From NCBI GenBank assembly GCA_020053305.1, contig JAGVNJ010000006.1:13166-77165 (forward strand): 64,000 nt of DNA, in the 5' to 3' direction. Source of the stretch: Candidatus Edwardsbacteria bacterium. GTDB lineage: Bacteria; Edwardsbacteria; AC1; EtOH8. A program made the translations under genes and the position numbers. The number at the start of each line of letters is the position of its first letter. Positions within the stretch are counted from its first letter, which is position 1. The notes under the pieces are model-generated. The model saw nothing but the letters and a program-made list of their open reading frames with translations. It was not told the origin of the DNA and made no database searches. This document shows positions 2,499 through 23,350 of this stretch, one piece after another.

Positions 2499-2528
2499 CG
2501 TACTGCCTACTTGTATGTTATGCTTTGG

Positions 2529-2557
2529 GGATACATTAGTGATGCCATTGTGAGATA
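2529..2557. repeat. Left flanking array of four-helix-bundle element 1 (GTGATAC-like x3, ~10-11 nt period)
   Basis: GGATAC at 2529, GTGATGC at 2539, GTGAGATA at 2550. This is the reverse complement of the GTATCAC array on the other side of the gene. Confidence 0.6.
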
Positions 2558-2558
2558 T

Positions 2559-2945
2559 TTACGATAGACGATGGAGCGAAGCGATGTAATTATTCAGTTT
2601 GACGGAGAGATTCTTATGTTTCACCGAATAGGTGCCAAGCATTTCATCTGAAACGTATTTCATCCTATGGCTAAAAACCAGATGGTGCTTGGTTTCAGCC
2701 AATGAGCCACGGGCAATGATGCAAAAATGAATCCGTTCTTTATAGGTATACCTGCCCCAGCCCTCGGCAATATTGGCGCCAATCGAGTTTGATGACCTGC
2801 GCACTTGCGAAGTCAAATTATATTGCTCCTCTTTGGGAAACTCTGCCGTAACTTGATACACCCATTCCGCCAGGTCCAGCGCCAGTTGGTATATTTCTAG
2901 ATCGGTGAAATCCTGTATCGCCTTTTTTCTTTCACTACCTTCCAT
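2559..2945 (-). CDS. Four-helix-bundle protein (23S rRNA intervening-sequence protein family, Avd-like), copy 1
   Basis: Family hallmarks: DLEIYQLALDLAEWVY...FPKEEQYNLTSQVRRSSNSIGANIAEGWGR...ARGSLAETKHHL. 128 aa, ATG at 2945. Confidence 0.85.
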   Translation of the reverse strand: MEGSERKKAIQDFTDLEIYQLALDLAEWVYQVTAEFPKEEQYNLTSQVRRSSNSIGANIAEGWGRYTYKERIHFCIIARGSLAETKHHLVFSHRMKYVSDEMLGTYSVKHKNLSVKLNNYIASLHRLS

Positions 2946-2946
2946 T

Positions 2947-2996
2947 GTATCACTACCGTATCACCATTGTATCACATGTTTTTACTGGAATATCAC
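2947..2996. repeat. Right flanking array of element 1 (GTATCAC x3 at 11-nt period plus TATCAC)
   Basis: GTATCAC at 2947, 2958 and 2969; TATCAC at 2991, overlapping the stop of the upstream gene. Confidence 0.75.
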
Positions 2997-4183
2997 TCGA
3001 CTTTTTTGTCATTCTCCGCCTTGACCGGAACGAACTCCCCGCCCTTGACCCTCCAGATGACATACGGCGCGGCCTTGATGTCGCCCTTGTTATTAAAATC
3101 CACCTCTCCCATGGCCCCGTAGAACTTCTGGGAATGCAGCACGCTGACCAGCGAATCCCCGGCGGCAATCCCGGCCTTTTCGATGGCCTGCAGCAGCACC
3201 ATGGCGGCATCGTAGGAGTAGACCGAATACGGCCCGATCTCGCCGTAGCGGGCCTTGAAGGAACCGTAGAACCGTCCGGCCTCCGGCATATCCTCCACCG
3301 CCGGGCCGAAGGTGAAATATGTGCCCTCGGTGGCAATGCCCCCGGCCTTTAAATAGACCGAGTTGGCGATGGCATCGCCGGCCATGAAGGCGCTTTTGAG
3401 TTTCCGTTCCTTCATCTTCCGCACCAACACCGCCCCCTCGGGATAGCTGCCGCCGAAGTATACCAGATCCGGCTGGATGCTGATCAACGGGTCCAGTACT
3501 GCGTCATAACCGGGTGCTTGCCCGTCCTTGACCGGCTGCAGCTCGGCCTCGGCCACGATCTCAACTGCCGGAATGGCGTTTTTGCCTCTAGTACCGATCG
3601 GCAGCTGTATCGAAGCAGTGATCAATTTCGTGAACTCCTCGGTAAGCCCGCGTCCATAGGTGGTGCCGTCGTTGAAGACAGCCACCTTTTTGATCTTCAG
3701 GTTATTAAGGGCGAAATCGGCCGCCACCTGTCCCTGCTGGTCGTCGCGCCCGCAGGTGCGGAACACGTTGGCAAATCCCTGCTCGGTGTATTTAGGATTG
3801 GTGGAGGACGGGGAGATCTGGGGCAGCATCCTCTGATTGTAGATGCGGCTGCCGGCTATGGAACAATGGCTGTTGTAGTGACCTATCACTCCGCAAACGC
3901 CCTGGTTGGACAGCTTCTCGGCCACGTTATATGCTTCCTTCTCATCGGCCCGGTCGTCGCCGGCTATGATCACTATCCTTTTGCCCAGCACTCCGCCCTT
4001 GGCATTCCATTCGGAGACCGCCAGCTGGACACCGTGCAGCACATCCTGCCCGGCCTTGGCCTGCTCGCCGGTCAGCGGCCCGGCCACTCCGATCTTGATC
4101 TGCTGGCCGCCCGGCCCGCAACCGGAGAATACAAGCGATATCAGGACGCCTGCTGTTAAGAGAATTGCAGTTGATTTTTTCAT
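2993..4183 (-). CDS. Branched-chain-amino-acid-type (LivK/LivJ-like) ABC substrate-binding lipoprotein
   Basis: Signal peptide plus lipobox (LVFSGCG), then IKIGVAGPLTGEQAKAGQD...GVIGHYNSHCSIAG..., typical of type 1 periplasmic binding proteins. Confidence 0.8.
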   Translation of the reverse strand: MKKSTAILLTAGVLISLVFSGCGPGGQQIKIGVAGPLTGEQAKAGQDVLHGVQLAVSEWNAKGGVLGKRIVIIAGDDRADEKEAYNVAEKLSNQGVCGVIGHYNSHCSIAGSRIYNQRMLPQISPSSTNPKYTEQGFANVFRTCGRDDQQGQVAADFALNNLKIKKVAVFNDGTTYGRGLTEEFTKLITASIQLPIGTRGKNAIPAVEIVAEAELQPVKDGQAPGYDAVLDPLISIQPDLVYFGGSYPEGAVLVRKMKERKLKSAFMAGDAIANSVYLKAGGIATEGTYFTFGPAVEDMPEAGRFYGSFKARYGEIGPYSVYSYDAAMVLLQAIEKAGIAAGDSLVSVLHSQKFYGAMGEVDFNNKGDIKAAPYVIWRVKGGEFVPVKAENDKKVE

Positions 4184-4217
4184 TTTATGCCTACTATATG
4201 TATGTTTAAAAGGTTTA

Positions 4218-5195
4218 CTAAAATACTACGGTCTCGGACTTTTTCTTAGCCCTGAATTTATTTAAAAACCAATATTTGATACTTTCCAATTTTTGGAATA
4301 ACCCACGCGGGCCAAAAACAAGCAATTTAAAATCATCGGATTTTATATAAATATATTCCGGCGCATTTTTAAACGTTTTGGTCGGTTTTATGAATATTTT
4401 TGCTTCGCAGTTCATCTTGATATCTATTGGCCGGTTTGTAGTTATCATTTCGTGTAATCGTGGCCCCCAGAAATTAATTTCTTCATTTGGCAACAGCCAT
4501 GATTTACTTTTATCATTATAATCAATATAATCAATTAAAGAATCTGACCAAGGAGCAACGAAATCTTCGGACACCATATTTTCTTTTAATGATATTTTCG
4601 CACCACACAAGCATCCAATATCTATGGTATCTCTGCTTATATTTTTTATATGATAATACAGAGGAAGTAAATGCCCGGAGATTATTTTTATTTTTTTAGG
4701 TTCATACCCATCGGGGACCGGTATTATTTTTAAATTATTATTACTTGGAAAAGCACGTTTGCCGATCCTTAAACCACGTTTAAAAGAATATTCCTTTAAA
4801 AAAAATGCTTTGGAGGTATCATCATCCAAAATGCCTGAAATTTTTATGCTCCCTTTCGTTTCATCATCTATCATATTAATACTAGCTTGCCAAATATAAA
4901 TTGTATCCGCCCAAACTGTTGTTTTCCGCCCATTGATTTTCTTTATTATTTTCCCGCCTTGTGCATTTACTTCAAATTGCGCTTTCCTTATATTATATTT
5001 TGTTACGATTTTTACAGTTATTGTATCGCCTTTCAGTGAACCGCCTTCGATGCCAAATTTTATCCATTCCCCAGCATTAAAAAAATGCCGTTCGAACGAT
5101 GGTGTCGGTTTCGTAGCACCGCAGAGTGTAAATGGTATAATACAATAGCCAAGCAATATGGTATTTCTTGCAAATAATGCAATCCTTGATTTCAT
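4218..5195 (-). CDS. Hypothetical lipoprotein on an AT-rich island
   Basis: Long ORF. Internal ATG at 5195 gives MKSRIALFARNTILLGYCIIPFTLCG, a signal peptide with lipobox. No recognisable domain. Composition is much more AT-rich than the flanking hydrogenase genes. Confidence 0.55.
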   Translation of the reverse strand: MKSRIALFARNTILLGYCIIPFTLCGATKPTPSFERHFFNAGEWIKFGIEGGSLKGDTITVKIVTKYNIRKAQFEVNAQGGKIIKKINGRKTTVWADTIYIWQASINMIDDETKGSIKISGILDDDTSKAFFLKEYSFKRGLRIGKRAFPSNNNLKIIPVPDGYEPKKIKIISGHLLPLYYHIKNISRDTIDIGCLCGAKISLKENMVSEDFVAPWSDSLIDYIDYNDKSKSWLLPNEEINFWGPRLHEMITTNRPIDIKMNCEAKIFIKPTKTFKNAPEYIYIKSDDFKLLVFGPRGLFQKLESIKYWFLNKFRAKKKSETVVF

Positions 5196-5240
5196 TTTAT
5201 TTCTTTCCCTCATGCGCATCAGATTATTCGAAACAGTGAA

Positions 5241-5471
5241 GGTAATAATCCTTCTTTCCTTGGTAATCATCGTTCCGGCCCTGGTAATAACCTTCCTGAC
5301 CAAGGAAATATTCGTTCCAACCTGGGGGATAAGCTTGCTTACTATGGTAATATCCTTTCTCCCCTCGGTAAGAACCTTTCCAACTTAGGTAATAACCATT
5401 CTTACTAAGGTAATATTCAATCTTACCCAAGTAATCAGCGATCTTACCTGAGTAACATTTCTCACAACCTC
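5241..5471. repeat. Tandem repeat, 11 units of 21 bp (consensus about GGTAATAWCCTTYCTNACYWW)
   Basis: Units start at 5241, 5262, 5283, 5304, 5325, 5346, 5367, 5388, 5409, 5430 and 5451. On the minus strand this reads as heptad x-x-G-Y-Y-x-x repeats (ORF 5224-5430), but the array continues two units past that ORF's ATG. Confidence 0.9.
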
Positions 5472-5548
5472 AAACATTCCAAAGAATTACCGATATTAAA
5501 GAACTGCTGGCTTTTTTGACCTAAAACGTCCGTACCACGCACTAACAG

Positions 5549-5584
5549 TTTCAAACCTCTCAAACGTTTCAAACCATTTCAAAC
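5549..5584. repeat. Solo short tandem array (T/C)TTCAAAC x4, 9-10 nt period
   Basis: TTTCAAAC at 5549, TCTCAAAC at 5558, TTTCAAAC at 5567 and 5577, just downstream of the antiporter-like gene stop (5596). Same motif as the right array of four-helix-bundle element 4. Confidence 0.8.
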
Positions 5585-5595
5585 TGTTAAGGAGG

Positions 5596-8437: not shown

Positions 8438-8572
8438 AATTTCTTCTTGATAAAAGCTTAAATAATGTTTGAGAAGTTAAACGATATATGACGGGCACTG
8501 TTTGAGATGCCTGCCTCTTTAAGGCAATCGATGATATTGCGTCAGAGATGTCCATCTGAAGGTCTGGCGATG

Positions 8573-8929
8573 TTATGCCCTCAGCGATCTTTCCAATGCC
8601 AGAAGTTTGAAATATAACTTGTCCAACAATGGTTCTGCGCCTTTAAACTCCGCCGGGGAAATATATTTTCGAGCGACGCCGATTTTCAGATTAGCTATTG
8701 TTTCCACCAAAGACCCGACAGCAATATTGACGTAATGGGCAAAGTCCTTTTTGGTGTGCTTGCAGCTTCCTTCAGCAATGTTCAGGGCAATTGAGGTTAC
8801 GGATCTCTTGCCTTGCTGTTTCAGGATATATTCTTCGGACTTGGGATACATCTCCAGCAAAGCGTACGCTTTATCAAAGCATTCCAGTGAAATATTCCAC
8901 ACTTCCAGTTTCTGAAACTTCAATTCCAT
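8573..8929 (-). CDS. Four-helix-bundle protein (IVS-protein family), copy 2
   Basis: MELKFQKLEVWNISLECFDKAYALLEMYPKSEEYILKQQGKRSVTSIALNIAEGSCKHTKKDFAHYVNIAVGSLVET. ATG at 8929; the track ORF starts at an upstream TTG. Confidence 0.8.
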   Translation of the reverse strand: MELKFQKLEVWNISLECFDKAYALLEMYPKSEEYILKQQGKRSVTSIALNIAEGSCKHTKKDFAHYVNIAVGSLVETIANLKIGVARKYISPAEFKGAEPLLDKLYFKLLALERSLRA

Positions 8930-9038
8930 ACTCACTCCATCCTTTCGTATACACAATTAATCGTCATCATGCCACCCTGTCTGGCATTTCAGACATCGCC
9001 AAACTTTCTAATTGCACTTCTCAAACGCCCTGCGGTCG

Positions 9039-9491
9039 TTACGCTCCCGTTCCATTGCGGAATCCCACCGTCATCATCCTGTCGATGATGGTCTGGGTCT
9101 CGAAGCACCGGCCGCAGCGCTGGCAGGTCCCCATGTAAACCTCGGCCGAGATGTGCATGTCGTTGTGGACATCGTTGGTGGCGGTTTCGAATTCCTGGGT
9201 CATAGTGATGGCCTTCTCCGGGCAGACGTCGGCGCAGCGTCCGCAGTAGGTGCAGCGCTCCAGATAGAAGTCCAGCTTGCGGACGGCCTGGCGGTCGGTT
9301 ACCACTATCAGCCGCGAGGGGCAGACATTGGCGCAGCCGGCGCAGCCGATGCATTTACTGACGTCTATGGTCAGCTTGCCCCGGAAGCCATCCACCGGAA
9401 GGGCCTCGATGTTCCTTTTTAAGGGATAGGGAAAGGTGACCCGCAGGTTTTTAAAGCAGATAAGGGCTTCTTTTAGTTTAGATAAGATCAT
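9039..9491 (-). CDS. hyfH: Hydrogenase 2x[4Fe-4S] ferredoxin-type subunit (HyfH/HycF, NuoI-like)
   Basis: CIGCAGCANVCP and CTYCGRCADVCP motifs, plus a C-terminal CQRCGRC. Confidence 0.85.
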   Translation of the reverse strand: MILSKLKEALICFKNLRVTFPYPLKRNIEALPVDGFRGKLTIDVSKCIGCAGCANVCPSRLIVVTDRQAVRKLDFYLERCTYCGRCADVCPEKAITMTQEFETATNDVHNDMHISAEVYMGTCQRCGRCFETQTIIDRMMTVGFRNGTGA

Positions 9492-9497
9492 ACTAAT

Positions 9498-9525
9498 GTT
9501 TACAATTTGTATGTTTACAGTTTAC
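9498..9525. repeat. Left flanking array of element 3 (GTTTAC x3)
   Basis: GTTTAC at 9498, 9513 and 9520, between the hyfH start and the stop of four-helix-bundle copy 3. Confidence 0.75.
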
Positions 9526-9536
9526 TGTTACCTTAA

Positions 9537-9935
9537 CTATTGGGTCGCTTTATACTTTAACCCCTTAATGTCAGTATTACCAAGGTATTTCATTAGGCTG
9601 AAAATTAAACGATTTATCTCTTCTGCTAACAGATAAACCTTGTTAAAAACATCTCCCGTAATATATTTTTGATCCAGTGCTGCATACAACTGGCTCTTGA
9701 CTTCACCCACAGATCCTTTGGCTATCGATAAATACTGTATGAACTCTTTCCTGCCACCCCTGTCAAATCCTTCTGCAATGTTAGACATAATTGAAACAGC
9801 GGCCCTTCTTATCTGATCACGCAAACCAAAGTCTTTGGAAAAATTTCCATTCTTGGTAATTTCATAAACCAATCTGGTCAATTCTCTTGCTTTTTGCCAA
9901 GCGGTGATGTCTTCAAATTTCTTAAACGTAGCCAT
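9537..9935 (-). CDS. Four-helix-bundle protein (IVS-protein family), copy 3
   Basis: [27 protein letters not shown]...[45 protein letters not shown]. Confidence 0.85.
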
Positions 9936-9958
9936 ATAAACATCTCTATATGATTACT

Positions 9959-9979
9959 GTAAACTACCGAACCGTAAAC
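9959..9979. repeat. Right flanking array of element 3 (GTAAAC x2, inverted relative to the left array)
   Basis: GTAAAC at 9959 and 9974. ACTGTAAAC (9956-9964) is the exact reverse complement of GTTTACAGT (9513-9521). Confidence 0.75.
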
Positions 9980-9991
9980 TTAAAACTCTTA

Positions 9992-10882
9992 TTACGCTCC
10001 CACCAACGCAAACACCAGTCCCACCAAAGCCGTCAACACCACTCCGAAATAATAGATCATGGCCTGGTCTATCCGCAGGCGGGGGTTGACCACGTCCACC
10101 AGACCGACCAGCAAAATGACCACCAGTATCTTGGCGATCTGGGCCAGCACCGCCCACAGTCCGGAGAGGCCGAAGGTCCATGGAAAAAATATCTGCACCA
10201 GGATCAGGGAAAATATCAGCTGCTTGATGATGAAGCCCCAGCGGTACAGGGCGAAGGTCGGCCCGGAGATCTCGATGAACGGCCCGCCCATCAGCTCGCC
10301 CTCGGCCTCGGGGATGTCAAACGGCAGTTTGGACAGCTGGGCCTGGATGCCCAACAACAGCGCGATCCCGGAGATGATCATGGAAAGCGAGGTGCCGGAG
10401 GACTGCTGGTAGAAGGCCATGTCGGAAAAGCGGAAGCTGTGGGTCTTCAGGGCCGCCGTGATCAGGGCGATGAACAGCACCGGCTCCACGGTCAGGGAGG
10501 TCATCATCTCCCGGGCAGTGCCCAGAAAGGCGTAGGGCGAGCCGGAGTCCATCCCGGCCAGCATCACGCAGACCGAGGCGAAACCGATCATATAAAGAAA
10601 CAGGATCATATCGCCCCCGGCAAAGGCCGCGCTTCCGCCCACCGGCACCAGCAGGCCGGCCAGCAGGACGGCCGCCAGGCTCAGGTAAGCCGGCACCGGC
10701 CCCAGCATGGAATGGGACGAACGGACGTTGTCCTTGCCCAGCAGTTTGAGGGTGTCCCAGTAGGGCTGCAGCAACGGCGGCCCGATCCGGGAATGCACCA
10801 GGGCCTTGAATTTGCGGAGGATGCCTTCCAGCAGCGGGGAGAGGAACAGCAGGGCCATTACCATTATTAATATTCTGAGCAT
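9992..10882 (-). CDS. hyfC: Hydrogenase membrane subunit (HyfC/HycD, NuoH-like)
   Basis: About 296 aa polytopic protein with NuoH-like features (ILRKFKALVHSRIGPP, PFDIPEAEGEL). ATG at 10882; the track ORF starts at a TTG one codon upstream. Confidence 0.85.
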   Translation of the reverse strand: MLRILIMVMALLFLSPLLEGILRKFKALVHSRIGPPLLQPYWDTLKLLGKDNVRSSHSMLGPVPAYLSLAAVLLAGLLVPVGGSAAFAGGDMILFLYMIGFASVCVMLAGMDSGSPYAFLGTAREMMTSLTVEPVLFIALITAALKTHSFRFSDMAFYQQSSGTSLSMIISGIALLLGIQAQLSKLPFDIPEAEGELMGGPFIEISGPTFALYRWGFIIKQLIFSLILVQIFFPWTFGLSGLWAVLAQIAKILVVILLVGLVDVVNPRLRIDQAMIYYFGVVLTALVGLVFALVGA

Positions 10883-10897: not shown

Positions 10898-10930
10898 GTT
10901 TGAAATGTTCCTGGTTTGAAAAAGTTTGAA
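10898..10930. repeat. Left flanking array of element 4 (GTTTGAA x3)
   Basis: GTTTGAA at 10898, 10914 and 10924. Confidence 0.8.
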
Positions 10931-10933
10931 CCG

Positions 10934-11326
10934 TTATGCTTGCTTGTGCTTTGCGCCTTTAATGGGCGAGGTTTTTAGGTACGTTATCAATTTTGCTATC
11001 ATAATTGAAAGCCCGGCAGCTTCTTCTCTTAAAGTTTTACCCTCAACCTCGGTCAGAAACATCAATTCCTGAGCGATCCATAAATGGCTCCTCAACTCCC
11101 CGCAAGACCCCTTGGCAATATAAAGATACTGAATAAACTCCTTATTGTTTTCCCTTTCGAACCCTTCGGCAATATTCGCCATAACAGAAACAGCCGCCCG
11201 TCGCGTTTGATCGACCAAGGGATAATCCTTATGATACTTTTGTACGTCAGCAGCCGCATAAATTTTTAGTGTCAACTGCTTGGCAATCTGCCATATTTTC
11301 AGATCTTCAAAATTCTTTACCGTCAT
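10934..11326 (-). CDS. Four-helix-bundle protein (IVS-protein family), copy 4
   Basis: MTVKNFEDLKIWQIAKQLTLKIY...RRAAVSVMANIAEGFERENNKEFIQYLYIAKGSCGELRSHL. ATG at 11326. Confidence 0.85.
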   Translation of the reverse strand: MTVKNFEDLKIWQIAKQLTLKIYAAADVQKYHKDYPLVDQTRRAAVSVMANIAEGFERENNKEFIQYLYIAKGSCGELRSHLWIAQELMFLTEVEGKTLREEAAGLSIMIAKLITYLKTSPIKGAKHKQA

Positions 11327-11354
11327 CACACGCCTCTTTTCCAATGCCAACCAT

Positions 11355-11390
11355 TTCAAACGCTTCCAACAGCTTCAAACCGTTTCTAAC
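11355..11390. repeat. Right flanking array of element 4 (TTCAAAC-like x4, 10-nt period, inverted relative to the left array)
   Basis: TTCAAAC at 11355, TTCCAAC at 11364, TTCAAAC at 11374, TTCTAAC at 11384. The last overlaps the large-subunit stop codon. Confidence 0.8.
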
Positions 11391-13065
11391 TATGCTTTGC
11401 CGTCCAGCTCGACAACTCTTCCTGGCCGTATATCCTGATCTTCCCGGAATCAACATCCACCACCTCCATCCGCTCGGTGCAGGAAAAACAGGGATCTATG
11501 GAACCCACGATGATCGGCACGTCGGCCACCTGCTCGCCCCGGACCATGTCCGGAATGGTCGGCAGGTTGGGATAGGTGGGGCAGCGCACCCTCCAGCGCT
11601 CCGGCCGGTTGTTGCCGCCGGTCAGCAAAAAGTGGACATCCTCGCCCCGGGGAGCCTCCACCGCCGAAATGGCGATGCGCCCGGCCGGGATGTCCTGCCG
11701 GATCTCGGTGATGATGTCGCCCTCCGGCAGTTCCATTAAAGCGTCTAAAGATTGATTGACGATCTTGAAAGACTCCAGAGTCTCCAATATCCGGACCACC
11801 GTCCGGCCCCAAACGTCGTTGCTGTCGGCGGTTATCACCTTGAAGTCCACCGCATCGTAGGCGCAGTAGGGATGGTCCTTGCGGGCGTCCATATCCAGAT
11901 CGGCCGCCCGGGCCACCGGGCCCACCGCCGCCCACTCGTGACAGCCCTCCTTGTTGAGGATCCCCACCTTCTCCAGCCGCATCCGCAGTGTGGTGTCGTC
12001 CTTGACCGCATCCAGCACCGCCAGCCATTCCTTCTCCATATTGTTCATCTTGGTGCGGATCTCGGGCACCAGGGTCCGGGGGATGTCGCGCCGCACTCCG
12101 CCGATCAGGTTCATGCCGTAGGTCTTGCGGTTGCCGGTGATCTTCTCGCACAGCCACATGATGGGCTCCCGCATCCGCCAGGTCTGCATCAGCACGGTGT
12201 CGAAGCCGATGATGTGCCCGGCCACCCCCAGCCACAGAGCGTGGGAATGGATGCGCTCCAGCTCCAGCATGATGGTCCGGATGAAGTCGGCCCGCCGCGG
12301 CACCTTGATGTCGGCGGCGTGTTCCACCAGCTTGCAGAAGGAGACGTTGTGCACGAAGCCGCAGATGCCGCAGATCCGCTCGGCCATGAACGGTATCTGA
12401 TTGTAGGTCAGGGTCTGGTCGCCCAGTTTTTCGATTCCCCGGTGGGCGTAGAACCCCCGGTAGTCGACATCCACCACCTTCTCGCCCTCCACATAGAGCC
12501 GGAAATAGGTGGCCTCCTCGAACACCGGGAAATACGGCCCCATGGCCACCACCGTGGTGCCTGGAGGATTGTCCTTGAACTTATAGGCCTGCTCGGGATG
12601 GGACTCCGGTTTTTGGCTGTAATCAAATTCTTTGCGCAGGGGGTAGACCTCGGCCGGCCAGTCGTCGGCCAGTATCAGCCGCCGGGGATCGGGATGGTTT
12701 TCGAACTGTATCCCCAGCAGGTCCCGGATCTCGCGCTCCGACCAGTTGGCCCCGGCAATGACGTTGGTGATGGAGGGTATCCTGGGGGTGTGGGGATCGG
12801 CCGTCACGTCAAGGGTGATGAAGAAATGATCCTTGTCGAAGGTGAACAGGTGGTAGACCGCAAAGCGCTTTTTGATGTCCCGCTCGTCGGAGCCCACGCT
12901 GACTAAGTATCTGGCAGGGGTCTGGCGGTGCAGTATCTCCACCGCCTGCACCACCGCCTCCGGCTTGACCTCCACCCACAACTGATCGTGGATCGGCTCG
13001 GTGGATCCCATGAACCCGGCGCCCAATTTGGCTTTCAGTAAGCTTAGAATATCCTGTTTGGTCAT
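11386..13065 (-). CDS. hyfG: Group 4 [NiFe] hydrogenase large subunit (HyfG/HycE, NuoC-NuoD fusion type)
   Basis: N-terminal Ni-binding motif RICGICGFVH and C-terminal DPCFSCTER, followed by a 27-aa tail of the kind removed by a HycI-type protease. 559 aa. Confidence 0.95.
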   Translation of the reverse strand: MTKQDILSLLKAKLGAGFMGSTEPIHDQLWVEVKPEAVVQAVEILHRQTPARYLVSVGSDERDIKKRFAVYHLFTFDKDHFFITLDVTADPHTPRIPSITNVIAGANWSEREIRDLLGIQFENHPDPRRLILADDWPAEVYPLRKEFDYSQKPESHPEQAYKFKDNPPGTTVVAMGPYFPVFEEATYFRLYVEGEKVVDVDYRGFYAHRGIEKLGDQTLTYNQIPFMAERICGICGFVHNVSFCKLVEHAADIKVPRRADFIRTIMLELERIHSHALWLGVAGHIIGFDTVLMQTWRMREPIMWLCEKITGNRKTYGMNLIGGVRRDIPRTLVPEIRTKMNNMEKEWLAVLDAVKDDTTLRMRLEKVGILNKEGCHEWAAVGPVARAADLDMDARKDHPYCAYDAVDFKVITADSNDVWGRTVVRILETLESFKIVNQSLDALMELPEGDIITEIRQDIPAGRIAISAVEAPRGEDVHFLLTGGNNRPERWRVRCPTYPNLPTIPDMVRGEQVADVPIIVGSIDPCFSCTERMEVVDVDSGKIRIYGQEELSSWTAKHS

Positions 13066-13080
13066 TGTATTCCTGATAGT

Positions 13081-13503
13081 TTAAGAGGTTGAATTGGTTG
13101 AAGCTGTTGCAGAGGTTTTTGGGCACCTCTTGCCTTTAACTTTAGTGTTTAGTAAGTATGTGATAAAGTTGTACACCATCGTGGAAATCCCTGAAGCCAT
13201 TTCTCTGGCTTGCGTATGTTGTGCCGGGGTTATGTATCCCCTTTCTTGAGCAAATATCAGGTGGCTTCTCAGTTCTCCGCACGAACCTTTTGCAATAAAC
13301 AAAAACTGAATGAATTCTTTGTTGCTGCCTCTTTCAAACCCCTCGGCAATATTGGCCATTACCGAAACTGCTGCCCGTCGCGATTGATCCATAAGGCTTT
13401 TGTCGCATTTAAAAGTATTTGTTCCCGTTAAATCGTAAATCAAGTTAGCAAGATCTTTGGCCTGCTGCCAGATTTTTAAATCTTCAAATCTCTTGACGGT
13501 CAT
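13081..13503 (-). CDS. Four-helix-bundle protein (IVS-protein family), copy 5
   Basis: MTVKRFEDLKIWQQAKDLANLIYDLT...RRAAVSVMANIAEGFERGSNKEFIQFLFIAKGSCGELRSHL. Closest paralog of copy 4. Confidence 0.85.
   Translation of the reverse strand: MTVKRFEDLKIWQQAKDLANLIYDLTGTNTFKCDKSLMDQSRRAAVSVMANIAEGFERGSNKEFIQFLFIAKGSCGELRSHLIFAQERGYITPAQHTQAREMASGISTMVYNFITYLLNTKVKGKRCPKTSATASTNSTS
13087..13102. repeat. Left flanking array of element 5 (GGTTGAA x2)
   Basis: GGTTGAA at 13087 and 13096. It lies inside a short C-terminal read-through extension of copy 5 (…TSATASTNSTS) that the paralogs lack. Confidence 0.7.
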
Positions 13504-13513
13504 AGTTTAATCC

Positions 13514-13566
13514 CTTCAACCTTTTAAACCAGTGCGTCTTTTCAACATATTCAACCTTTTAAACGG
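13514..13566. repeat. Right flanking array of element 5 (TTCAACC/TTCAACA x3; includes two copies of TTCAACCTTTTAAAC)
   Basis: TTCAACC at 13515, TTCAACA at 13541, TTCAACC at 13550. Inverted relative to the GGTTGAA array. Confidence 0.8.
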
Positions 13567-13584
13567 AGCCCAATAGCTGTCAGC

Positions 13585-14220
13585 CTAGTTAACATCTCCC
13601 CAGTTGAAACTGATCCCTCCGGTAAAGCCATATCCGGATATGTCATCCAGCGGTTTCCCGTACAAGTAGTTTGCCTCGATGGGAATGGATATCAATTTAC
13701 CGAGTTTTATTTCAAATCCTCCATTCACGCCAAAGCCCACCTCCGGATCCTCGTTATTCCCCGTTATGCTCAGTCCGACATAACTCAATTTATATTCCTC
13801 GGTGACGGAATAAACATTGGCCTGGAGATATGGGAAAAGTCTTTCTCCGATATTACCCGGGTTGTACCGCAAACCTATCCCCACACCTCCGGCGGTCACT
13901 TCCCCCTTAAGACCGTTGACTTCCTCATCGCTGGTCCAGGCCCGGATATCCACCGCCAGGTCAACATTTTTATCGAAGGAGTAGCGGTAGTTGAGATATT
14001 GGCCTGTTCCCTGGCTGAGGTCGAACCCCGGCAGCTTAAAATCCCCGCTGGTGGATTTGAAATATCCCAGAAAACCCAGGGAGATATGGTGCCGCCCCAG
14101 GTTCTCACTGAATTTTTTCTGGTTCAGGGCCGCAGTCACCACCTCATCGTCGCTTTGAAACTGGGCCTGGGCCATTCCGCAGAGACTGGCAAGAAGAATC
14201 AGAACGGATATTTTTTTCAT
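13585..14220 (-). CDS. Small outer-membrane beta-barrel protein (porin-family-like)
   Basis: MKKISVLILLASLCGMAQAQ signal peptide, alternating beta-strand pattern, aromatic-rich C-terminus (GGISFNWGDVN). Confidence 0.6.
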   Translation of the reverse strand: MKKISVLILLASLCGMAQAQFQSDDEVVTAALNQKKFSENLGRHHISLGFLGYFKSTSGDFKLPGFDLSQGTGQYLNYRYSFDKNVDLAVDIRAWTSDEEVNGLKGEVTAGGVGIGLRYNPGNIGERLFPYLQANVYSVTEEYKLSYVGLSITGNNEDPEVGFGVNGGFEIKLGKLISIPIEANYLYGKPLDDISGYGFTGGISFNWGDVN

Positions 14221-14363
14221 GTTGCCCCTTATAAACATTTTAACCTTTTCAACTTTTTAACTTTTTTCTAGATTCCCGATGGATTTAACTCCACACTTGA
14301 TGCGGAACAGGAATAACATTACCTTGCCTTTTTCATAAATCATGTTAATCCTGTCAAGGGTTT

Positions 14364-16419: not shown

Positions 16420-17670
16420 TTAACTTACAATTTTTATAAATTCAGGATCAGCCAATAAGGATTTAAAATCCTCTTCTTTTTTTGCTTTTTCTTTGCATGA
16501 AGAATCTAGTTCTATTGCTTTAGCTAAATTTTCAAGTGCTTTTTCTCTTTTACCCATTAGAGAATAAACACACGCTTTGTTTAGCCAAGCATTGGCAAAA
16601 TGAGGGTTTAATTCAAGCGCCTTCTTGTGGGCCTTAAGAGCTTCGTCATATTGTTTTAGATTGTTAAGCACAACTCCTTTATTATCCCAGGCTTCAGCAT
16701 AATTTGGTTGTAATGCAATTGCTTTATCAAAAGCACTTAATGCTTCAGTAAATTGTTCTTGTTTGCTATATGCAATTCCTTTACCAACCCAGACTTCCGC
16801 AAAATCAGGCTTTATAACCAGTGCTTTATTGAAAACATCTATTGCTTCATTATATTTTTCGAGATTACATAGTGCTTGCCCCATACCCCCTAAAGCAGAT
16901 GGATCATTTGGGTTCAATTCTATTGCCTTTTTAAAAGCTTCTAAAGCTTCCCCCTTTTCGCCAAGATTACCATGTGCATCGCCCTTACCAATCCAGGCAG
17001 GCATAAAATCGGGTTTCAATTTTATCGTTTGTTCAAAAGCATTTAATGCTTCCCTAAATTTACCTTTGTAATAAAGATCTATCCCTTTGGTAAAGTAATT
17101 TTTATATGTTAGTCTAATTCCTAATGTTTCTAGGATTTCTATTTTTTTACTATGTTCATTTAATTTTTCTTTTATTTCTTTTGGCGGTTGTATGTTTAAT
17201 GGTCTTGGTTTTAACTCTTGCTCCAACGATTCTGCTTCTTCTTTTATCTTTTTAATGGCATTAGCATGTAGTTGAGCCTCAGTTAATGACTGTTTTATTT
17301 CTTCCGCACATTTTTGGGCTTCGTTTTTATATTCTATAATTTTTTGTTTTTCTCTTTCAATGTCCTCTCTCATTTCACGCCGGTCTTTCCAAAGTGTATA
17401 ACCAGCAATACCAACCGTAGCCATAAGAAAAGCAAGTAAAATAGAAAACCCACCGAGCACCAAAGAAAAAGTTTTTAAGACAAAATCATAAAACTTAACC
17501 GGGTCGCTTTGCTGTTTTTCCGGGTGGTTCGTCTGAACGCAAACCGTTTCTGGCTTGGCTATGGTGTTTTGCTTTGTGCTTGGCTGGGTTGTTTGCGCAT
17601 TAAGCGGGTACGCAAAGCAAAAAGCCAACAAAACAACAAGTATTTCAAAAACACAGTGGCGAGGATTCAT
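16420..17670 (-). CDS. TPR-repeat protein with signal peptide, TM segment and coiled coil (AT-rich)
   Basis: MNPRHCVFEILVVLLAFCFAYPLNAQ, then a Lys/Glu-rich coiled coil, then about 6 TPR units (AWxxKGxAxxxLxxYxEALxAFxKAIELxP). Confidence 0.7.
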   Translation of the reverse strand: MNPRHCVFEILVVLLAFCFAYPLNAQTTQPSTKQNTIAKPETVCVQTNHPEKQQSDPVKFYDFVLKTFSLVLGGFSILLAFLMATVGIAGYTLWKDRREMREDIEREKQKIIEYKNEAQKCAEEIKQSLTEAQLHANAIKKIKEEAESLEQELKPRPLNIQPPKEIKEKLNEHSKKIEILETLGIRLTYKNYFTKGIDLYYKGKFREALNAFEQTIKLKPDFMPAWIGKGDAHGNLGEKGEALEAFKKAIELNPNDPSALGGMGQALCNLEKYNEAIDVFNKALVIKPDFAEVWVGKGIAYSKQEQFTEALSAFDKAIALQPNYAEAWDNKGVVLNNLKQYDEALKAHKKALELNPHFANAWLNKACVYSLMGKREKALENLAKAIELDSSCKEKAKKEEDFKSLLADPEFIKIVS

Positions 17671-17747
17671 ACACTCACCTCTTTTATTTACAATAAACAT
17701 ACTACCAAAATATAAATCAGCGAAAATCAGCGTCCTATTAAATTCCT

Positions 17748-17797
17748 TTACCTTATTAATTTTATCAGCGGCAATCCCACCAGCGGGGCGATCACGC
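17748..17797. repeat. Copy A of the ~50-bp 3' end of the antiporter-like gene at 19773-21224
   Basis: TTTACCTTATTAATTTTATCAGCGGCAATCCCACCAGCGGGGCGATCACG is nearly identical to 18907-18962 and 19773-19826. Translated, it gives VIAPLVGLPLIKLIR*. Confidence 0.9.
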
Positions 17798-18187
17798 TCC
17801 GCCCAATCTTTTTTTTATTTCGTTCCTGATCCGTTCTGCGGCTTCCTGGGCGCGTTTGGCTTCCTTGCTGGATATATCGCTGGGCCAGTGCACCGGGTAC
17901 CGGGCTTCTATGTAGAAATCCGTCAGGAATTCGCATTCTTCTTTCAGCGGCAACAAGGTTTCGTCTTTGGCCGCGCATACCCGCAACAACTCGGGCAGAT
18001 TGTGAATTTTTCTGAAATCCAAATTATGGGCGATAACGAATGCTTTCAGATATTTCTCGGCAGATTGCTGAAAATGGAAACAGACTTGCGGCAAGAATTC
18101 GTCTCTTTCTTTGAGGATGAAATTGGCAAACCGGAGATCCTCATCCGCTTTACCAAGCCATTCCTTAACGATGCCCGGGTCAGCCAT
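17792..18187 (-). CDS. HEPN domain protein (toxin partner of a MNT/HEPN pair)
   Basis: MADPGIVKEWLGKADEDLRFANFIL...FHFQQSAEKYLKAF...EARYP is a HEPN pattern. It overlaps the MNT stop by 8 nt, and its own stop lies inside repeat copy A. Confidence 0.75.
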   Translation of the reverse strand: MADPGIVKEWLGKADEDLRFANFILKERDEFLPQVCFHFQQSAEKYLKAFVIAHNLDFRKIHNLPELLRVCAAKDETLLPLKEECEFLTDFYIEARYPVHWPSDISSKEAKRAQEAAERIRNEIKKRLGGA

Positions 18188-18500
18188 AAAGCACCTTCCC
18201 TTCCGCAAAAACGCACTTCAGGAACGGATCGCCCATCCGCAGCCTGTTTTCCAGTTCTTCCTTTTTGTAGATAAGATAGTCTACCGGCAAATGGCTTTCG
18301 ATCAGTTTCCGCACTTCCCGCATCCGCTCCCGGCTGTTGACTGGCACATCCTGCTTGATCACCAAAAAATCCAAATCGCTGTCCGGGCCAAAACCGCTGC
18401 CTGCGGCCGAACCGAACAAAATTACTTTTTGCGCATGGTATTTCTCAACCAGCTGACCGGCTATTGATTCTATTTCTTTTTTTAGTTCTTCGTCTGACAT
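18180..18500 (-). CDS. Minimal nucleotidyltransferase (MNT) domain protein
   Basis: KVILFGSAAGSGFGPDSDLDFLVI carries the GSxxxGxxxxxSDxD pol-beta NTase motif. ATG at 18500. Confidence 0.75.
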   Translation of the reverse strand: MSDEELKKEIESIAGQLVEKYHAQKVILFGSAAGSGFGPDSDLDFLVIKQDVPVNSRERMREVRKLIESHLPVDYLIYKKEELENRLRMGDPFLKCVFAEGKVLYG

Positions 18501-18528
18501 GATTAACAGAGCCTTTCCATTTGAATGT

Positions 18529-18846
18529 TTACCTGCAAGGCCCGCCGAACTCGATGAAAGCATCTGGGGGTTTCCGGGTGCCGCCCCAACTTGATATTCC
18601 AATTGGGAATGTCAAGTTTTTAAATTCCTCCGGCGTAAGCTGGAACATGAAATCCTCGGGGAACCGGTAGAGATTCCTTTTCACCGCTTTGTTCAGGTTG
18701 AAGGTCTCTATGCCGTATAATGCAGCCAGATCCTTGTCAAACATCACTTTCTGTCCGCGGATAATTCGGATCAGCCGTTCAACCCGCTCGTCCGGGACAA
18801 CCGCTTTCTGCCGGCCCAGGGCGTTTTCATTTCCGTCAACTTTCAA
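18529..18846 (-). pseudogene. ORF6N-domain (KilA-N-related DNA-binding) protein, apparently C-terminally truncated
   Basis: IRGQKVMFDKDLAALYGIETFNLNKAVKRNLYRFPEDFMFQLTPEEF...SSWGG is the ORF6N core. The ORF ends shortly after it (family members are usually longer). It has a TTG start and abuts the MNT/HEPN pair. Confidence 0.5.
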
Positions 18847-18906
18847 CGCGACTTCAACCTTTTAACCGCTTCCCTCACCCACCGGGGGAGGGATCAAGGG
18901 AGGGGT

Positions 18907-18962
18907 CTACCTTATTAATTTTATCAGCGGCAATCCAACCAGCGGGGCGATCACGGTCAGCG
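18907..18962. repeat. Copy B of the ~50-bp 3' end of the antiporter-like gene at 19773-21224
   Basis: CTACCTTATTAATTTTATCAGCGGCAATCCAACCAGCGGGGCGATCACGGTCAG. The stop codon of the 18957-19766 gene lies inside it. Confidence 0.9.
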
Positions 18963-21224: not shown

Positions 21225-21254
21225 AATCTTCTATAATAGTATGGGTTTATATTT

Positions 21255-21395
21255 TTTGATCGTCATTCTGAGTCTAGCAAGCCGAAGAATCTTTTTGTCA
21301 TCCTGAGAAATCTATCCGCCCGACAGGCCGAACGGGTGACACCCGTCATCCTTCAACCTGCATTGCTCCGAAGTTTACTCAGCATGACAATCGTA
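21255..21395. repeat. REP-like nested palindromic intergenic element (GTCATYSYGAG-arm family)
   Basis: CGTCATTCTGAG ... CTCAGCATGAC outer arms, with an inner TGTCATCCTGAG. Confidence 0.6.
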
Positions 21396-21475
21396 CCGGG
21401 GTAATCTCACACAACGACACCAAGCATTTTCAAACATGGTTCTTGTGAATCTCCGTGCCTTGGTGTGAAAATATC

Positions 21476-21973: not shown

Positions 21974-21981
21974 TGAGACTA

Positions 21982-22036
21982 CAATTGTATCGCCATCGTA
22001 TTGCTATTGTATGACCAATCGTAATCCCGATCGTTA
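21982..22036. repeat. Solo tandem array, 5 units of 11 nt (CAATTGTATCG-like)
   Basis: Units at 21982, 21993, 22004, 22015 and 22026 fill the gap between the AsrB-like stop and the hycI start. The TGTAT core resembles the right array of element 1. Confidence 0.75.
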
Positions 22037-22870
22037 GAACGCCTCTTCGGCCAGCCCCTTGATCTCGGTGTAGTCGAACACCGGACCCTCGGTGCAGACG
22101 TACTTGTTCCCGATACAGCAGTGGCCGCACTTGCCCACCCCGCACTTCATATAACGCTCCAAAGTGGAGACGATCTGCTTCTCCGGCAAACCGAGTTTTA
22201 GAAGCTCGATGATCACGAATTTTATCATGATGGGCGGCCCGCAGGTATAGACCACGGTGTTGGGGATATCCAATTTCAATTTGGGGAACAGGGTGGTTAC
22301 CACGCCCACGTTTCCGGTCCATTCCTTGTCGGCCACGTCCACCGTCTGGACCAGCTTCAGGTCGGTTTTCTTTTCCCATTCGCTTAACTGATATTTATAG
22401 ACCCGGTCGGCCGGGGTCCGGGCTCCGTAGAGAATGGTGAAATCGCGGTGATCGGAACGGTGATTGAATATGTGGTCAATCATGGAGCGCAGCGGCGGAA
22501 GGCCGATGCCTCCCCCGATCACCAGCACGTCCCTGCCCTTGGAGTCTATCTTGTCCAAAAAGCTGTTACCCAGCGGCCCCTTGATGCCGATCTCGTCGCC
22601 GGTCTTCAGCTCGGCCAGGGCATTGGTCACCCGGCCGCAGGCCCGCACCGTAAAGGTCATCACCCCTGGTTCTTTGGGCGAGGTGGTCAACCCGAAGGGC
22701 GCCTCGCCGGCCCCGAACACCGAGGCCTCCACGAACTGCCCGGGCCGGGAGACAAACAGTTTGGCCTGGTCCTTCTTTTTTATTCTGACATCATAGGTGC
22801 GGGTATCCGGCGTCTCCTGCTTGATGTCGGTGATCTCGGAAATGTACGGTAGGTAGATATTGGGATTCAT
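22034..22870 (-). CDS. FAD/NAD(P)-binding oxidoreductase with C-terminal [2Fe-2S] (AsrB / sulfhydrogenase-gamma / PyrK-like)
   Basis: RPGQFVEASVFG...PFGL (FAD-binding), VLVIGGGIGLPPL (NAD(P)-binding), CGVGKCGHCCIG...C (2Fe-2S). Confidence 0.85.
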   Translation of the reverse strand: MNPNIYLPYISEITDIKQETPDTRTYDVRIKKKDQAKLFVSRPGQFVEASVFGAGEAPFGLTTSPKEPGVMTFTVRACGRVTNALAELKTGDEIGIKGPLGNSFLDKIDSKGRDVLVIGGGIGLPPLRSMIDHIFNHRSDHRDFTILYGARTPADRVYKYQLSEWEKKTDLKLVQTVDVADKEWTGNVGVVTTLFPKLKLDIPNTVVYTCGPPIMIKFVIIELLKLGLPEKQIVSTLERYMKCGVGKCGHCCIGNKYVCTEGPVFDYTEIKGLAEEAF

Positions 22871-22883
22871 AATTCTTCTTAAG

Positions 22884-22911
22884 CTCTAATTTCTAATTTC
22901 TAAACTCTAAA
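22884..22911. repeat. Left flanking array of element 6 (YTCTAAW x4, 7-nt period)
   Basis: CTCTAAT at 22884, TTCTAAT at 22891, TTCTAAA at 22898, CTCTAAA at 22905. Confidence 0.75.
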
Positions 22912-22936
22912 CAAATCCAAAACTAAAATGACAAAA

Positions 22937-23320
22937 TTATTGTGTTTTTTCCACTATTGATCCGAAAATTTTCATCAACTGGGTGGCTTCATCGCAAAGA
23001 ATTTGTCTTTCTTTTTCTATTTTCTCATTATCTGTTTCAATTAGATTAAGCCAGTATCTTGATTCTTTGGCTTCCTTGCGGGATATCTTGATGTGCATTA
23101 AAAAATCTTTACGGCTTAAGGCCTCATTGGCCTCTATGTAATTGGCTCCGACAGATCCGCTGGAGCGTACTAATTGTTTGATTATTTCGTTATTGACCAC
23201 ATCCTTTGGCAGTTTTCTTACAAAAGCGATAACAGCCCTAGCGAATTTTAATGTTCGTTCTTCAAGATCATACTGCCTGGATTTTTCTGTTTTTGTATTT
23301 GTATTTTGGCTTTCGGACAT
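22937..23320 (-). CDS. Four-helix-bundle protein (IVS-protein family), copy 6
   Basis: YDLEERTLKFARAVIAFVRKLPKDVVNNEIIKQLVRSSGSVGANYIEANEALSRKDFLMHIKISRKEAKESRYWL. Confidence 0.8.
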   Translation of the reverse strand: MSESQNTNTKTEKSRQYDLEERTLKFARAVIAFVRKLPKDVVNNEIIKQLVRSSGSVGANYIEANEALSRKDFLMHIKISRKEAKESRYWLNLIETDNEKIEKERQILCDEATQLMKIFGSIVEKTQ

Positions 23321-23336
23321 TGTTCAGGATTTCGTA

Positions 23337-23350
23337 TTTAGGGTTTAGGG
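23337..23350. repeat. Right flanking array of element 6 (TTTAGGG x2, roughly inverted relative to the left array)
   Basis: TTTAGGG at 23337 and 23344. It overlaps the last codons (NPKP*) of the AsrA-like gene. Confidence 0.65.

Follow-up and report, generated by a model that had tools for sequence, protein, structure and literature searches.

Four-helix-bundle genes between the genes of a hydrogenase operon as probable cargo of mobile, hairpin-bounded cassettes

In a stretch of 64,000 nucleotides from a Candidatus Edwardsbacteria bacterium (contig JAGVNJ010000006.1, positions 13,166 to 77,165; the whole stretch is called the window here), six small genes coding for four-helix-bundle (FHB) proteins of the family PF05635 are lodged between the genes of one hydrogenase operon. 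Each of them is very probably the cargo of a discrete mobile cassette bounded by a hairpin. The open reading frame (ORF) is enclosed by two arms of short iterated units, the units of the 5' arm returning as reverse complements in the 3' arm, and close relatives differ by gain, loss and replacement of the whole arm-ORF-arm unit. The design recalls the intervening sequences (IVSs) of 23S rRNA that carry an ORF of the same family, which suggests that the arms may act at the level of RNA.

The six ORFs had been described in the initial annotation as co-oriented paralogs of an IVS/Avd-like family, located at gene junctions and interrupting no gene, and all of these statements proved correct. The ORFs were found at the positions given there, code for 118-140 aa and share the orientation of the operon, with scores of 57-126 bits against PF05635 (cut-off 33.8) and 75-118 bits against TIGR02436 (cut-off 24). 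The neighbors identified by Pfam are those that had been named, and the flanking genes align to their orthologs over the full length, so no gene is interrupted. The copies lie within 21 kb, with zero in the other 41 kb of the window, and no seventh copy was found in any frame of the 64 kb using a local hidden Markov model (HMM) made from the six. Recent local duplication is ruled out as their source by a pairwise amino acid identity of only 14-57%. GC content at third codon positions (GC3) is 0.35-0.51 in the FHB ORFs vs 0.77-0.86 in the hydrogenase genes. The operon as such (window 1-26000) is a compositional mosaic, in which a TPR protein (16420-17700) has a GC3 of 0.26 and the outer-membrane protein (OMP) gene one of 0.60. 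The cassettes, with the arm-arm pairs of the minimum free energy (MFE) fold, are as follows (E-values refer to PF05635 unless stated).

2515..2977, minus strand: cassette 1 at the LivK-like/hyfI junction; 5' arm 2943-2977 (GTGATAC units, period 11), FHB1 ORF 2559-2945 (2e-34), 3' arm 2515-2550 (GTATCAC-type); inverted repeat of 34 nt, 74% complementary, MFE fold with 24 arm-arm pairs.
8467..9026, minus strand: cassette 2 at the hyfH/hyfE junction; 5' arm 8993-9026, FHB2 ORF 8573-8929 with an alternative TTG start at 8956 (2e-24), 3' arm in two parts, 8558-8573 and 8467-8477; inverted repeats of 16 nt (88%), 20 nt (80%) and 11 nt (100%), 26 arm pairs.
9498..9986, minus strand: cassette 3 at the hyfC/hyfH junction; 5' arm 9956-9986 (GTTTAC units), FHB3 ORF 9537-9935 (9e-37), 3' arm 9498-9529 (GTAAAC units); inverted repeats of 24 and 17 nt, 22 arm pairs.
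10898..11385, minus strand: cassette 4 at the hyfG/hyfC junction; 5' arm 11327-11385 (GTTTGAA/GTTGGAA, period 9-10), FHB4 ORF 10934-11326 with an alternative TTG start at 11359 (1e-32), 3' arm 10898-10938 (TTCAAAC); inverted repeats of 25 and 23 nt, 31 arm pairs, extending into the Shine-Dalgarno (SD)/start region.
13063..13575, minus strand: cassette 5 between hyfB (antiporter-like) and hyfG, in the order hyfB, OMP beta-barrel gene, FHB5, hyfG; 5' arm 13514-13575 (TTTAAAAGGTTGAA units, the unit also being given as AAAGGTTGAA), FHB5 ORF 13081-13503 (2e-33), 3' arm 13063-13114, the reverse complement, overlapping the last FHB5 codons; inverted repeat of 24 nt (88%), 31 arm pairs.
22886..23348, minus strand: cassette 6 at the asrA-like/asrB-like junction; 5' arm 23316-23348 (CCTAAAC units), overlapping the last asrA codons, FHB6 ORF 22937-23320 (2e-15; TIGR02436 5e-21), 3' arm 22886-22936 (TTTAGA units); 23 arm pairs.

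The minus-strand gene cluster that hosts them was assigned through Pfam to a group-4 (Hyf/Hyc/complex-I-like) [NiFe] hydrogenase operon, listed here in transcription order.

24441-23338, minus strand: AsrA-like Fer4_22 gene, the first.
22870-22034, minus strand: AsrB-like gene, the second.
Downstream of AsrB-like, minus strand: HycI protease, then three antiporter-like subunits.
13065-11386, minus strand: HyfG, fused 30K/49K large subunit.
10885-9992, minus strand: HyfC, NADHdh-type.
9491-9039, minus strand: HyfH, 2x[4Fe-4S].
3' of HyfH, minus strand: HyfE, then a cNMP-binding protein, then a LivK-like binding protein.
2498-2016, minus strand: HyfI small subunit (Oxidored_q6), the last listed.

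A cassette measures ~0.45-0.6 kb and is built of a 5' arm, an SD region, the FHB ORF and a 3' arm. The 5' arm, which consists of 3-6 tandem units of 7-11 nt, starts no more than a few nucleotides from the upstream stop codon; the 3' arm, made of the 5' arm units in reverse complement, begins at or within the last FHB codons and is followed by a short host spacer with the ribosome-binding site of the next gene. Unit sequences vary between the cassettes of the window, and cassette 2 is an exception in having a long-range complement of the conventional kind with no iterated units. When whole elements were folded, the 5' arm paired with the 3' arm in all six (22-31 bp), leaving the ORF as the loop. 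The specificity of this relation is best seen in the hexamers common to a 5' arm and a reverse-complemented 3' arm: among 27 elements of this operon in ten related genomes, cognate arms have 6.6 of them, non-cognate arms 2.0-2.3, and the observed mean was reached in 0/20,000 permutations. No sigma-70-type promoter or terminator signals above shuffles were detected at cassette boundaries, and no rRNA or other Rfam family was found in the window. The arms also lengthen neighboring or own ORFs when translated, giving the asrA tail ...NPKP-stop (23338-23352) and the FHB5 C-terminal tail ...TSATASTNSTS-stop (13081-13120), a point of consequence for annotation. The FHB4 5' arm (11327-11385) and the FHB5 3' arm (13063-13114) flank hyfG and have 11 complementary-sense hexamers in common, so an alternative stem looping out hyfG is possible.

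Mobility of the unit is evident from the occupancy of the same junctions in related operons. A scan with HyfG, using one genome per species, gave 79 loci (loci are designated by L numbers). FHB genes occur in the operon solely in close relatives (83-95% HyfG identity), which are metagenome-assembled genomes labelled UBP2, Latescibacterota or Edwardsbacteria and hold 2-5 copies per operon; none was found in the hyf operons of ~70 distant loci (HyfG <=57% identity). An ancient fixed operon architecture, which the initial annotation had named as an outcome that would undo its reading, is therefore ruled out. Within the close relatives, several junctions lack an FHB gene, as the same annotation had led one to look for, or carry a different one.

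hyfG/hyfC: FHB in the window, L160 (FHB4 ortholog 91% identical), L004, L002, L068, L072 and L003; none in L027 (the closest relative), L005 and L069.
hyfH/hyfE: FHB in the window and L004 only (L004 copy of FHB2: 77% aa identity, dN/dS 0.09); absent in the other seven loci covering the junction.
LivK/hyfI: FHB1 in the window, FHB1-type copies in L160, L003, L072 and L069; none in L027, L004, L005 and L002.
hyfB/hyfG: FHB in the window, L005 (FHB5 ortholog 88%, dN/dS 0.15) and L002; frameshifted in L027; short spacers in L001 and L068; other content in L003, L004, L072 and L160.
hyfC/hyfH: FHB in the window and all eight genome-scan relatives covering the junction; a methyltransferase instead in L160.
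asrA/asrB: FHB6 ortholog in L027 (94%), a copy in L003; a PDDEXK_3 ORF in L004.

Five of the six junctions are thus without a cassette in at least one close relative that retains the same hydrogenase genes. The remaining one, hyfC/hyfH, is occupied by an FHB in L027 that is only 64% identical to that of the window (proportions of synonymous and nonsynonymous differences, pS 0.97 and pN 0.24), against an identity of 94-97% for its neighbors hyfC and hyfH (pS ~0.3), which indicates that this FHB was replaced and not inherited. FHB6, by contrast, has a synonymous distance (dS) to its L027 ortholog of 0.38, equal to that of its host-gene neighbors, which points to vertical inheritance. Between L027 and the window, junction spacers with and without a cassette had no alignable flank. 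The frameshifted FHB5 ortholog of L027 (9539-9975) is split into two fragments, and L004 carries a partial hyfG duplicate (8688-10004) directly upstream of the intact hyfG.

Copies at unrelated loci define the limits of the unit more sharply. The L082 element has 85-86% protein identity to those of L089, L099 and L102, with five GTTCAA units per arm in all; their flanks are unrelated, a LexA gene lying upstream in L082 and an ImuB-like gene upstream in L099. Similarity sets in with the outermost nucleotides of the 5' arm, 2-6 nt past the upstream stop codon, and stops with those of the 3' arm. Since it does not go beyond the arms, it is arm, ORF and arm together that constitute the mobile unit. 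In an RNAalifold consensus of four related elements, the arms pair over ~38 bp, as 6-8-bp helices split by small internal loops at variable spacer positions.

The same design extends well beyond this operon. With an FHB3/4/5-type alignment as the query, a scan of metagenomes gave at least 577 confirmed relatives, and 80 loci were examined. In the 74 elements with both flanks, cognate arms have 8.8 hexamers in common, non-cognate arms 2.9, and at least three hexamers are common to the cognate arms in 88%; the units include GTTCAAACC, GTTCCAATC, GTTTCAA, GATTAAAC and GGTCCAAA. The median arm is 39 nt long; ~19 nt separate the 5' arm from the ATG, whereas the 3' arm begins right at the stop codon and overlaps the ORF in 52%. 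Run lengths of units have a mode of 5 in 99 elements vs 3 in shuffles, and periods peak at 7 and 9 nt. A correspondence of five units per arm with a pentameric protein is suggestive only, as the run length ranges from 3 to 9 and comes from a noisy heuristic. Co-orientation with the surrounding genes was assessed on 73 metagenomic family members, a sample independent of the clade of the window: the upstream neighbor is co-oriented in 55/61 (90%), compared with a background of 71% at the same loci, and both neighbors are in 37/45 (82%), compared with 54% (Fisher p ~0.002). This is the preference for co-oriented sites on which the initial annotation had made its reading depend.

Cassettes are found in unrelated operons of many phyla. 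Host junctions include those between operon partners such as aroA and aroC, the two halves of a split transketolase, and a sugar-binding protein and its ABC ATPase, and further ones between cas6 and a large ORF with no Pfam match and between a PDDEXK nuclease and a DNA methylase. The GC3 of the metagenomic FHB genes is below that of their neighbors in 61/72. Complete records of cultured organisms have the arm-ORF-arm design too, for example plasmid pNsp_c of Nostoc sp. ATCC 53789 (at 96.4-96.9 kb), with GGGAAAA units, and Riemerella anatipestifer, with GGTTCAAG units and an erpA-like gene beside the FHB gene; N. punctiforme PCC 73102 is a further cultured carrier. Direct experiments are therefore possible. 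Carriage by phages is scarcely seen, with no match in INPHARED and one locus in IMG/VR.

The protein inside the cassettes is maintained by selection. The ratio of nonsynonymous to synonymous substitution rates (dN/dS) of orthologous FHB pairs is 0.065-0.15, similar to that of the host genes, which indicates purifying selection and hence functional proteins. For FHB4, the one modelled, AlphaFold2 predicts helices at 10-25, 35-56, 61-87 and 93-119 with a pLDDT of 91.9; in Foldseek this model gave TM-scores of 0.87-0.89 to the four-helix bundles 2GSC and 2RLD (0.88 to 2GSC) and of ~0.8 to Avd (4DWL, 8UBE), and a profile search matches 2GSC at 1e-27. The entries 2GSC and 2RLD contain five chains each, and the solved relatives in PF05635 are described in the literature as homopentameric toroids. 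A word-indexed protein search gave at least 6,202 homologs of FHB4; the 120 listed are all 124-159 aa long, match PF05635 alone, with an overlapping bAvd match in a few, and contain no recognizable catalytic domain. As late as 2024, the family was termed functionally uncharacterized in published papers.

Avd, the accessory protein of diversity-generating retroelements (DGRs), is a close, characterized point of reference. It forms a pentamer with a positive charge, whose ligand is a defined structured RNA element within the transcript of the DGR (bioRxiv 10.1101/2023.10.23.563531), and the FHB4 model resembles it in fold. The six ORFs, however, fall short of the Avd-specific models, with 22.8 bits against NF033474 (cut-off 80; FHB1 only) and at most 19.6 bits against PF22296 (19-19.6; cut-off 40), and no DGR reverse transcriptase (RT) adjoins them; no search was made for template and variable repeats. 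The operon itself contains no RT, and the only one in the window, 25 kb away, belongs to a type II-A retron. Among defence-system models (PADLOC), five of the six FHB proteins had no match at E <= 0.01, and FHB6 had a marginal one (0.008, 13 bits).

The nearest parallel to the cassettes is the IVS of 23S rRNA. In Coxiella burnetii, the IVS in helix 45 has a 28-bp terminal stem and an S23p ORF on the sense strand, preceded directly before its ATG by three tandem heptamers GACAGAT whose copy number varies by strain; RNase III cuts at the start of the first repeat, and GC is below that of the genome (PMC4990558). ORF-bearing rRNA IVSs (Coxiella, Leptospira) and the cassettes thus have in common a PF05635 protein in a sense ORF, enclosing terminal inverted repeats, tandem repeats upstream of the ORF, low GC, a sporadic distribution among relatives and short ORF-less versions. 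They differ in location, as an rRNA IVS sits in the tip of an rRNA helix, whereas the cassettes lie in intercistronic spacers of a protein-coding operon, and also in that the ORFs of the cassettes are under purifying selection, have SD-like sequences and occur as several diverged copies per transcript. Excision by RNase III has been demonstrated for rRNA IVSs and may be extended to the cassettes by analogy.

Altogether, we give a probability of roughly 55% to the composite reading that the cassette is an IVS-type element living in an mRNA spacer, with arms that act at the RNA level. The cassette would be co-transcribed with the hydrogenase operon, and its arms would pair into an imperfect stem of ~25-40 bp closing the FHB ORF into a loop. 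This stem would probably be a substrate of RNase III, as in 23S rRNA IVSs, and cleavage would set the FHB message free and divide the polycistron at this junction, the host fragments perhaps still being held by the residual stem. The stem would stand in the way of ribosomes that terminate on the upstream gene and of those that reach the end of the FHB ORF, so that translation and processing should compete. The ring-shaped FHB protein, for its part, would most likely bind the iterated units of its own arms, as Avd binds structured RNA. Taken singly, processing of an RNA stem by RNase III is given slightly less than an even chance, and binding of the protein to its own arms is a more tentative proposal. 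Of the suggestion in the initial annotation that the genes represent a self-propagating element or an mRNA-level module and not ordinary operon content, the mobile unit is borne out by the inverted arms and their recurrence at unrelated sites; autonomy goes a step further than these data, and action at the RNA level is something that we infer from the rRNA IVSs.

Several observations weigh against action of the arms as RNA. No other cassette has inverted repeats as weak as those of cassette 6 (24 nt, 71%; 12 nt, 92%), whose counterpart in L003 has clearer arms (CGAAATCCTAAACA). Cognate arms scored only 0.4-2.6 standard deviations better than shuffles in RNAduplex, because long flanks pair promiscuously, and for this reason k-mer and permutation tests were used instead of energies. 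Some non-cognate arms in the window match as well, for example the 5' arm of FHB4 and the 3' arm of FHB5. Mismatches between arms are G:U-compatible in 70 cases vs A:C in 60 (p = 0.43), and transversions make up half of the total; with no RNA-specific wobble signature, the complementarity could be maintained at the DNA level. Unit cores are conserved and spacers variable, and the TTCAA-type core is used in both orientations relative to the ORF (19 vs 9 elements), which fits a protein-bound duplex or DNA terminal repeats as well as an RNA stem. Finally, the S23p ORF of Coxiella appears untranslated and decaying, unlike the ORFs here, which are under purifying selection.

Several of these points are accommodated by a DNA transposon-like element, in which the arms would be terminal inverted repeats of reiterated binding sites, the FHB pentamer an end-binding or synaptic protein, catalysis supplied in trans and the RNA stem a by-product. 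We regard this alternative as unlikely, if far from negligible. Reiterated binding sites at element ends are found in Tn7 and Mu and in the subterminal repeats of plant Ac/Ds. Such an element would explain the missing bias of G:U over A:C, the conserved cores with free spacers in runs commonly of 4-6, the use of the core in either orientation, the loss of homology beyond the arms when copies from unrelated sites are compared, and the ORF-less derivatives with similar arms in nearby spacers, which recall miniature inverted-repeat transposable elements (MITEs). MITEs and foldback elements indeed resemble the cassettes in their terminal inverted repeats of reiterated subrepeats, their short non-coding derivatives and their presence/absence variation. 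However, no known transposase is associated with the cassettes: a catalytic domain is missing from the 120 homologs listed, and no transposase or integrase gene adjoins the cassettes. Nor did the boundaries of copies from unrelated sites show a target-site duplication, and the cassettes differ from MITEs in their strict sense bias within transcription units. Co-orientation and the codon-tight placement at stop and start codons are not required of a DNA element, though selection for expression could yield both. Moreover, the only characterized homolog, Avd, binds RNA.

It could also be hypothesized that the arms are the essential element, serving as sites for a trans-acting enzyme of the host or of a mobile element, as in attC sites or REP/RAYT systems, and that FHB genes are merely the commonest small cargo. 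This we consider improbable. In its favor are the variety of other cargo and the ORF-less hairpins described below. The same slots in relatives hold a methyltransferase, a prolyl-tRNA synthetase (ProRS), proteins with a type IX secretion system (T9SS) tail, a HEPN protein and a PDDEXK_3 ORF. The last of these, in L004 (1052-1683, asrA/asrB junction), is a 126-aa ORF of PF13366 with GGTTGCCCACTAAAACCCACGAAAA three times upstream and once inverted downstream, and with its inverted repeats it represents a second small-ORF family using the hairpin-bounded cassette design. The complete ProRS gene stands between an FHB cassette and hyfH in L003 (13541-14998) and equivalently in L072 and L069, an essential gene lodged within the hydrogenase operon. 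In the window itself, an ORF lies between what look like remnant FHB-type arms:

4184..5584, minus strand: probable former FHB slot; GTTTGAAAC x4 array 5548-5584 (TRF), unknown low-GC ORF 4218-5303 and remnant 3' arm 4184-4217.

The GC3 of this ORF is 0.33 vs 0.84 for hyfF. In L160, the hyfF/LivK junction (15539-16023) holds a complete FHB ORF with arms, not called in the public gene table, and homology to window 4184-4217 is present in the outer portion of its 3' arm (TAAACCTTTTGAACATATTAAAC...ATATAGATAGGCA). This homology, along with the array on the other side of the ORF, points to an ORF swapped within a pair of arms, so that the stretch is probably a former FHB slot with another gene inside. 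The uncalled gene of L160 also illustrates that FHB cassettes can escape annotation.

FHB-less junctions in relatives often hold ORF-less hairpins of similar build, the main family being CCACAAAGACACCAAG...CTTGGTGTCTTTGTGG, which is represented in the window at 21406-21467 and 24554-24637. This family, with CACMAAG units, recurs at several junctions, filling FHB-less ones in L027, L005 and L002 and occurring also in L116. Solo arrays and hairpins in the window are the following.

21406..21467, minus strand: ORF-less hairpin of iterated CACMAAG units ('mini' element) in the hycI/hyfD spacer, read from the sequence.
24554..24637, both strands: second ORF-less inverted pair of CACAAAG-type units (24554-24569 and 24622-24637) upstream of asrA, from pattern matches.
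14234..14266, minus strand: GTTAAAA/GTTGAAAA unit array (TRF period 8, 4 copies), just upstream of the OMP gene (13585-14238) and like the FHB5 5' arm.
21984..22012, minus strand: solo ATACRAT unit array with no ORF (TRF period 11) in the asrB/hycI spacer, like FHB1-type 5' arm units (L003, L072) and conserved in L004 and L005.

Against the arms as the essential element, the arms co-vary and travel with the FHB protein lineage, the FHB genes are under purifying selection inside the cassettes, and the methyltransferase and HEPN cargos had no matching arms when tested. No FHB master copy for the CACMAAG hairpins was found in the loci examined, and the 64 kb contains no integrase or RAYT-like gene. 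Repetitive extragenic palindromes (REP/REPIN) and their RAYT genes resemble the cassettes in that a gene is flanked by inverted short repeats and that ORF-less hairpins, of different units, stand in other spacers. RAYTs, however, are HUH/Y1 transposases, a domain that the FHB proteins do not have; the arms are cassette-specific tandem arrays of 7-11-nt units, and no link between the mini-hairpins and FHB was found. Integron cassettes are likewise promoterless, co-oriented and small, with imperfect hairpin-forming inverted repeats and a cargo that varies by position, but they have a single downstream attC and a dedicated array, whereas the FHB repeats stand on both sides and the cassettes are scattered singly among essential genes of the operon. 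Neither an integron integrase nor another tyrosine recombinase was found among the scanned ORFs of the 64 kb, and there is no attI. Membership of the FHB genes in defence systems, DGRs and integrons was tested in each case and rejected.

A third possibility is that the cassettes are domesticated punctuation of the operon, a host module and not a selfish one, in which stem-directed processing sets how stable the mRNAs of the hydrogenase subunits are relative to one another, and their stoichiometry. The co-inheritance of FHB6 with host genes at equal dS (0.38), the FHB gene at hyfC/hyfH in the window and the eight genome-scan relatives covering that junction, the conservation of the ORFs and the insertion exactly between cistrons with no harm to them would all agree with such a role. 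It remains very doubtful in view of the five junctions that have no cassette in at least one close relative with the same hydrogenase genes, the methyltransferase that takes the place of the FHB at hyfC/hyfH in L160, the cassettes in unrelated operons of many phyla, the low, foreign-like GC and the ~70 other lineages that run the operon with none. As for ordinary paralogous small genes in spacers, with arms that are chance or low-complexity sequence, intergenic DNA is AT-rich and repeat-rich here and the RNAduplex z-scores alone are unimpressive, but this explanation is effectively refuted by cognate matching in two independent data sets (0/20,000 permutations; 8.8 vs 2.9), by recurrence at unrelated loci, by unit run lengths above shuffles and by the same design in Cyanobacteria and Bacteroidota (Nostoc and Riemerella).

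The preferred reading, an IVS-type cassette with arms acting as RNA, can be enlarged into a speculation that we think rather unlikely as a whole. The PF05635 family might mark widespread, unrecognized autonomous mobile elements of operon spacers, and occasionally of rRNA helices, where alone they would have been noticed so far; their Avd-like pentamer would recognize its own arm units and mediate both RNA processing and spread, possibly via an RNA or single-stranded intermediate. They would be the free-living relatives from which the Avd of DGRs was recruited, and the ORF-less hairpins would be their non-autonomous derivatives. In the literature within reach (most subscription journals lay outside it), hairpin-bounded FHB cassettes in operons are not described, and only rRNA-IVS and DGR papers and incidental annotations were found. 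What appears to be new here is a general design of iterated arms in IVS-type elements that lie outside rRNA. What rRNA IVSs and their conserved ORF do and where they come from, a question dating from the early 1990s, thereby becomes testable. The rRNA IVSs may be a special case of an arm-ORF-arm design living mostly between operon genes. If the stems are processed, polycistronic mRNAs would be cut at defined points, with six cuts in one hydrogenase transcript, which would amount to an unrecognized form of operon regulation or of parasitism. The cassettes also suggest where the DGR accessory protein Avd came from.

Other features were noted in the window. The spacer between hyfF and ORF 4218-5303 contains, at 5338-5455 on the minus strand, tandem 21-nt units that each form a hairpin of the TTACC...GGTAA type, and the FHB-less hyfG/hyfC spacer of L027 has a related ATATTACC...ATAGTAAGCAA motif. 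Inside the hydrogenase operon, a nucleotidyltransferase gene and a HEPN gene (18602-18180 and 18208-17792; 17749-18961, minus strand) form a pair with a 54-nt direct repeat on either side (17749-17802 and 18908-18961; 94% identical), part of which is the 3' end of the upstream ORF. The pair resembles an insertion of another kind, with target duplication. Outside the operon, two co-oriented housekeeping genes, gltX (46115-47581) and glnS (49656-51356), likewise have a low-GC insert between them, the type II-A retron (47582-49650, plus strand; GC ~0.35). It comprises a probable msr/msd region (47582-47797) that contains a long hairpin, an NDT-like effector (47798-48694; PADLOC 5e-52) and the RT (48691-49650; PADLOC 1e-101). 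Further on, a type I restriction-modification operon (52360-58977, minus strand) contains hsdS (52360-53496), hsdM (53493-55004) and hsdR (56170-58977), with a Fic/SoFic-like gene (55130-56173) between hsdM and hsdR.

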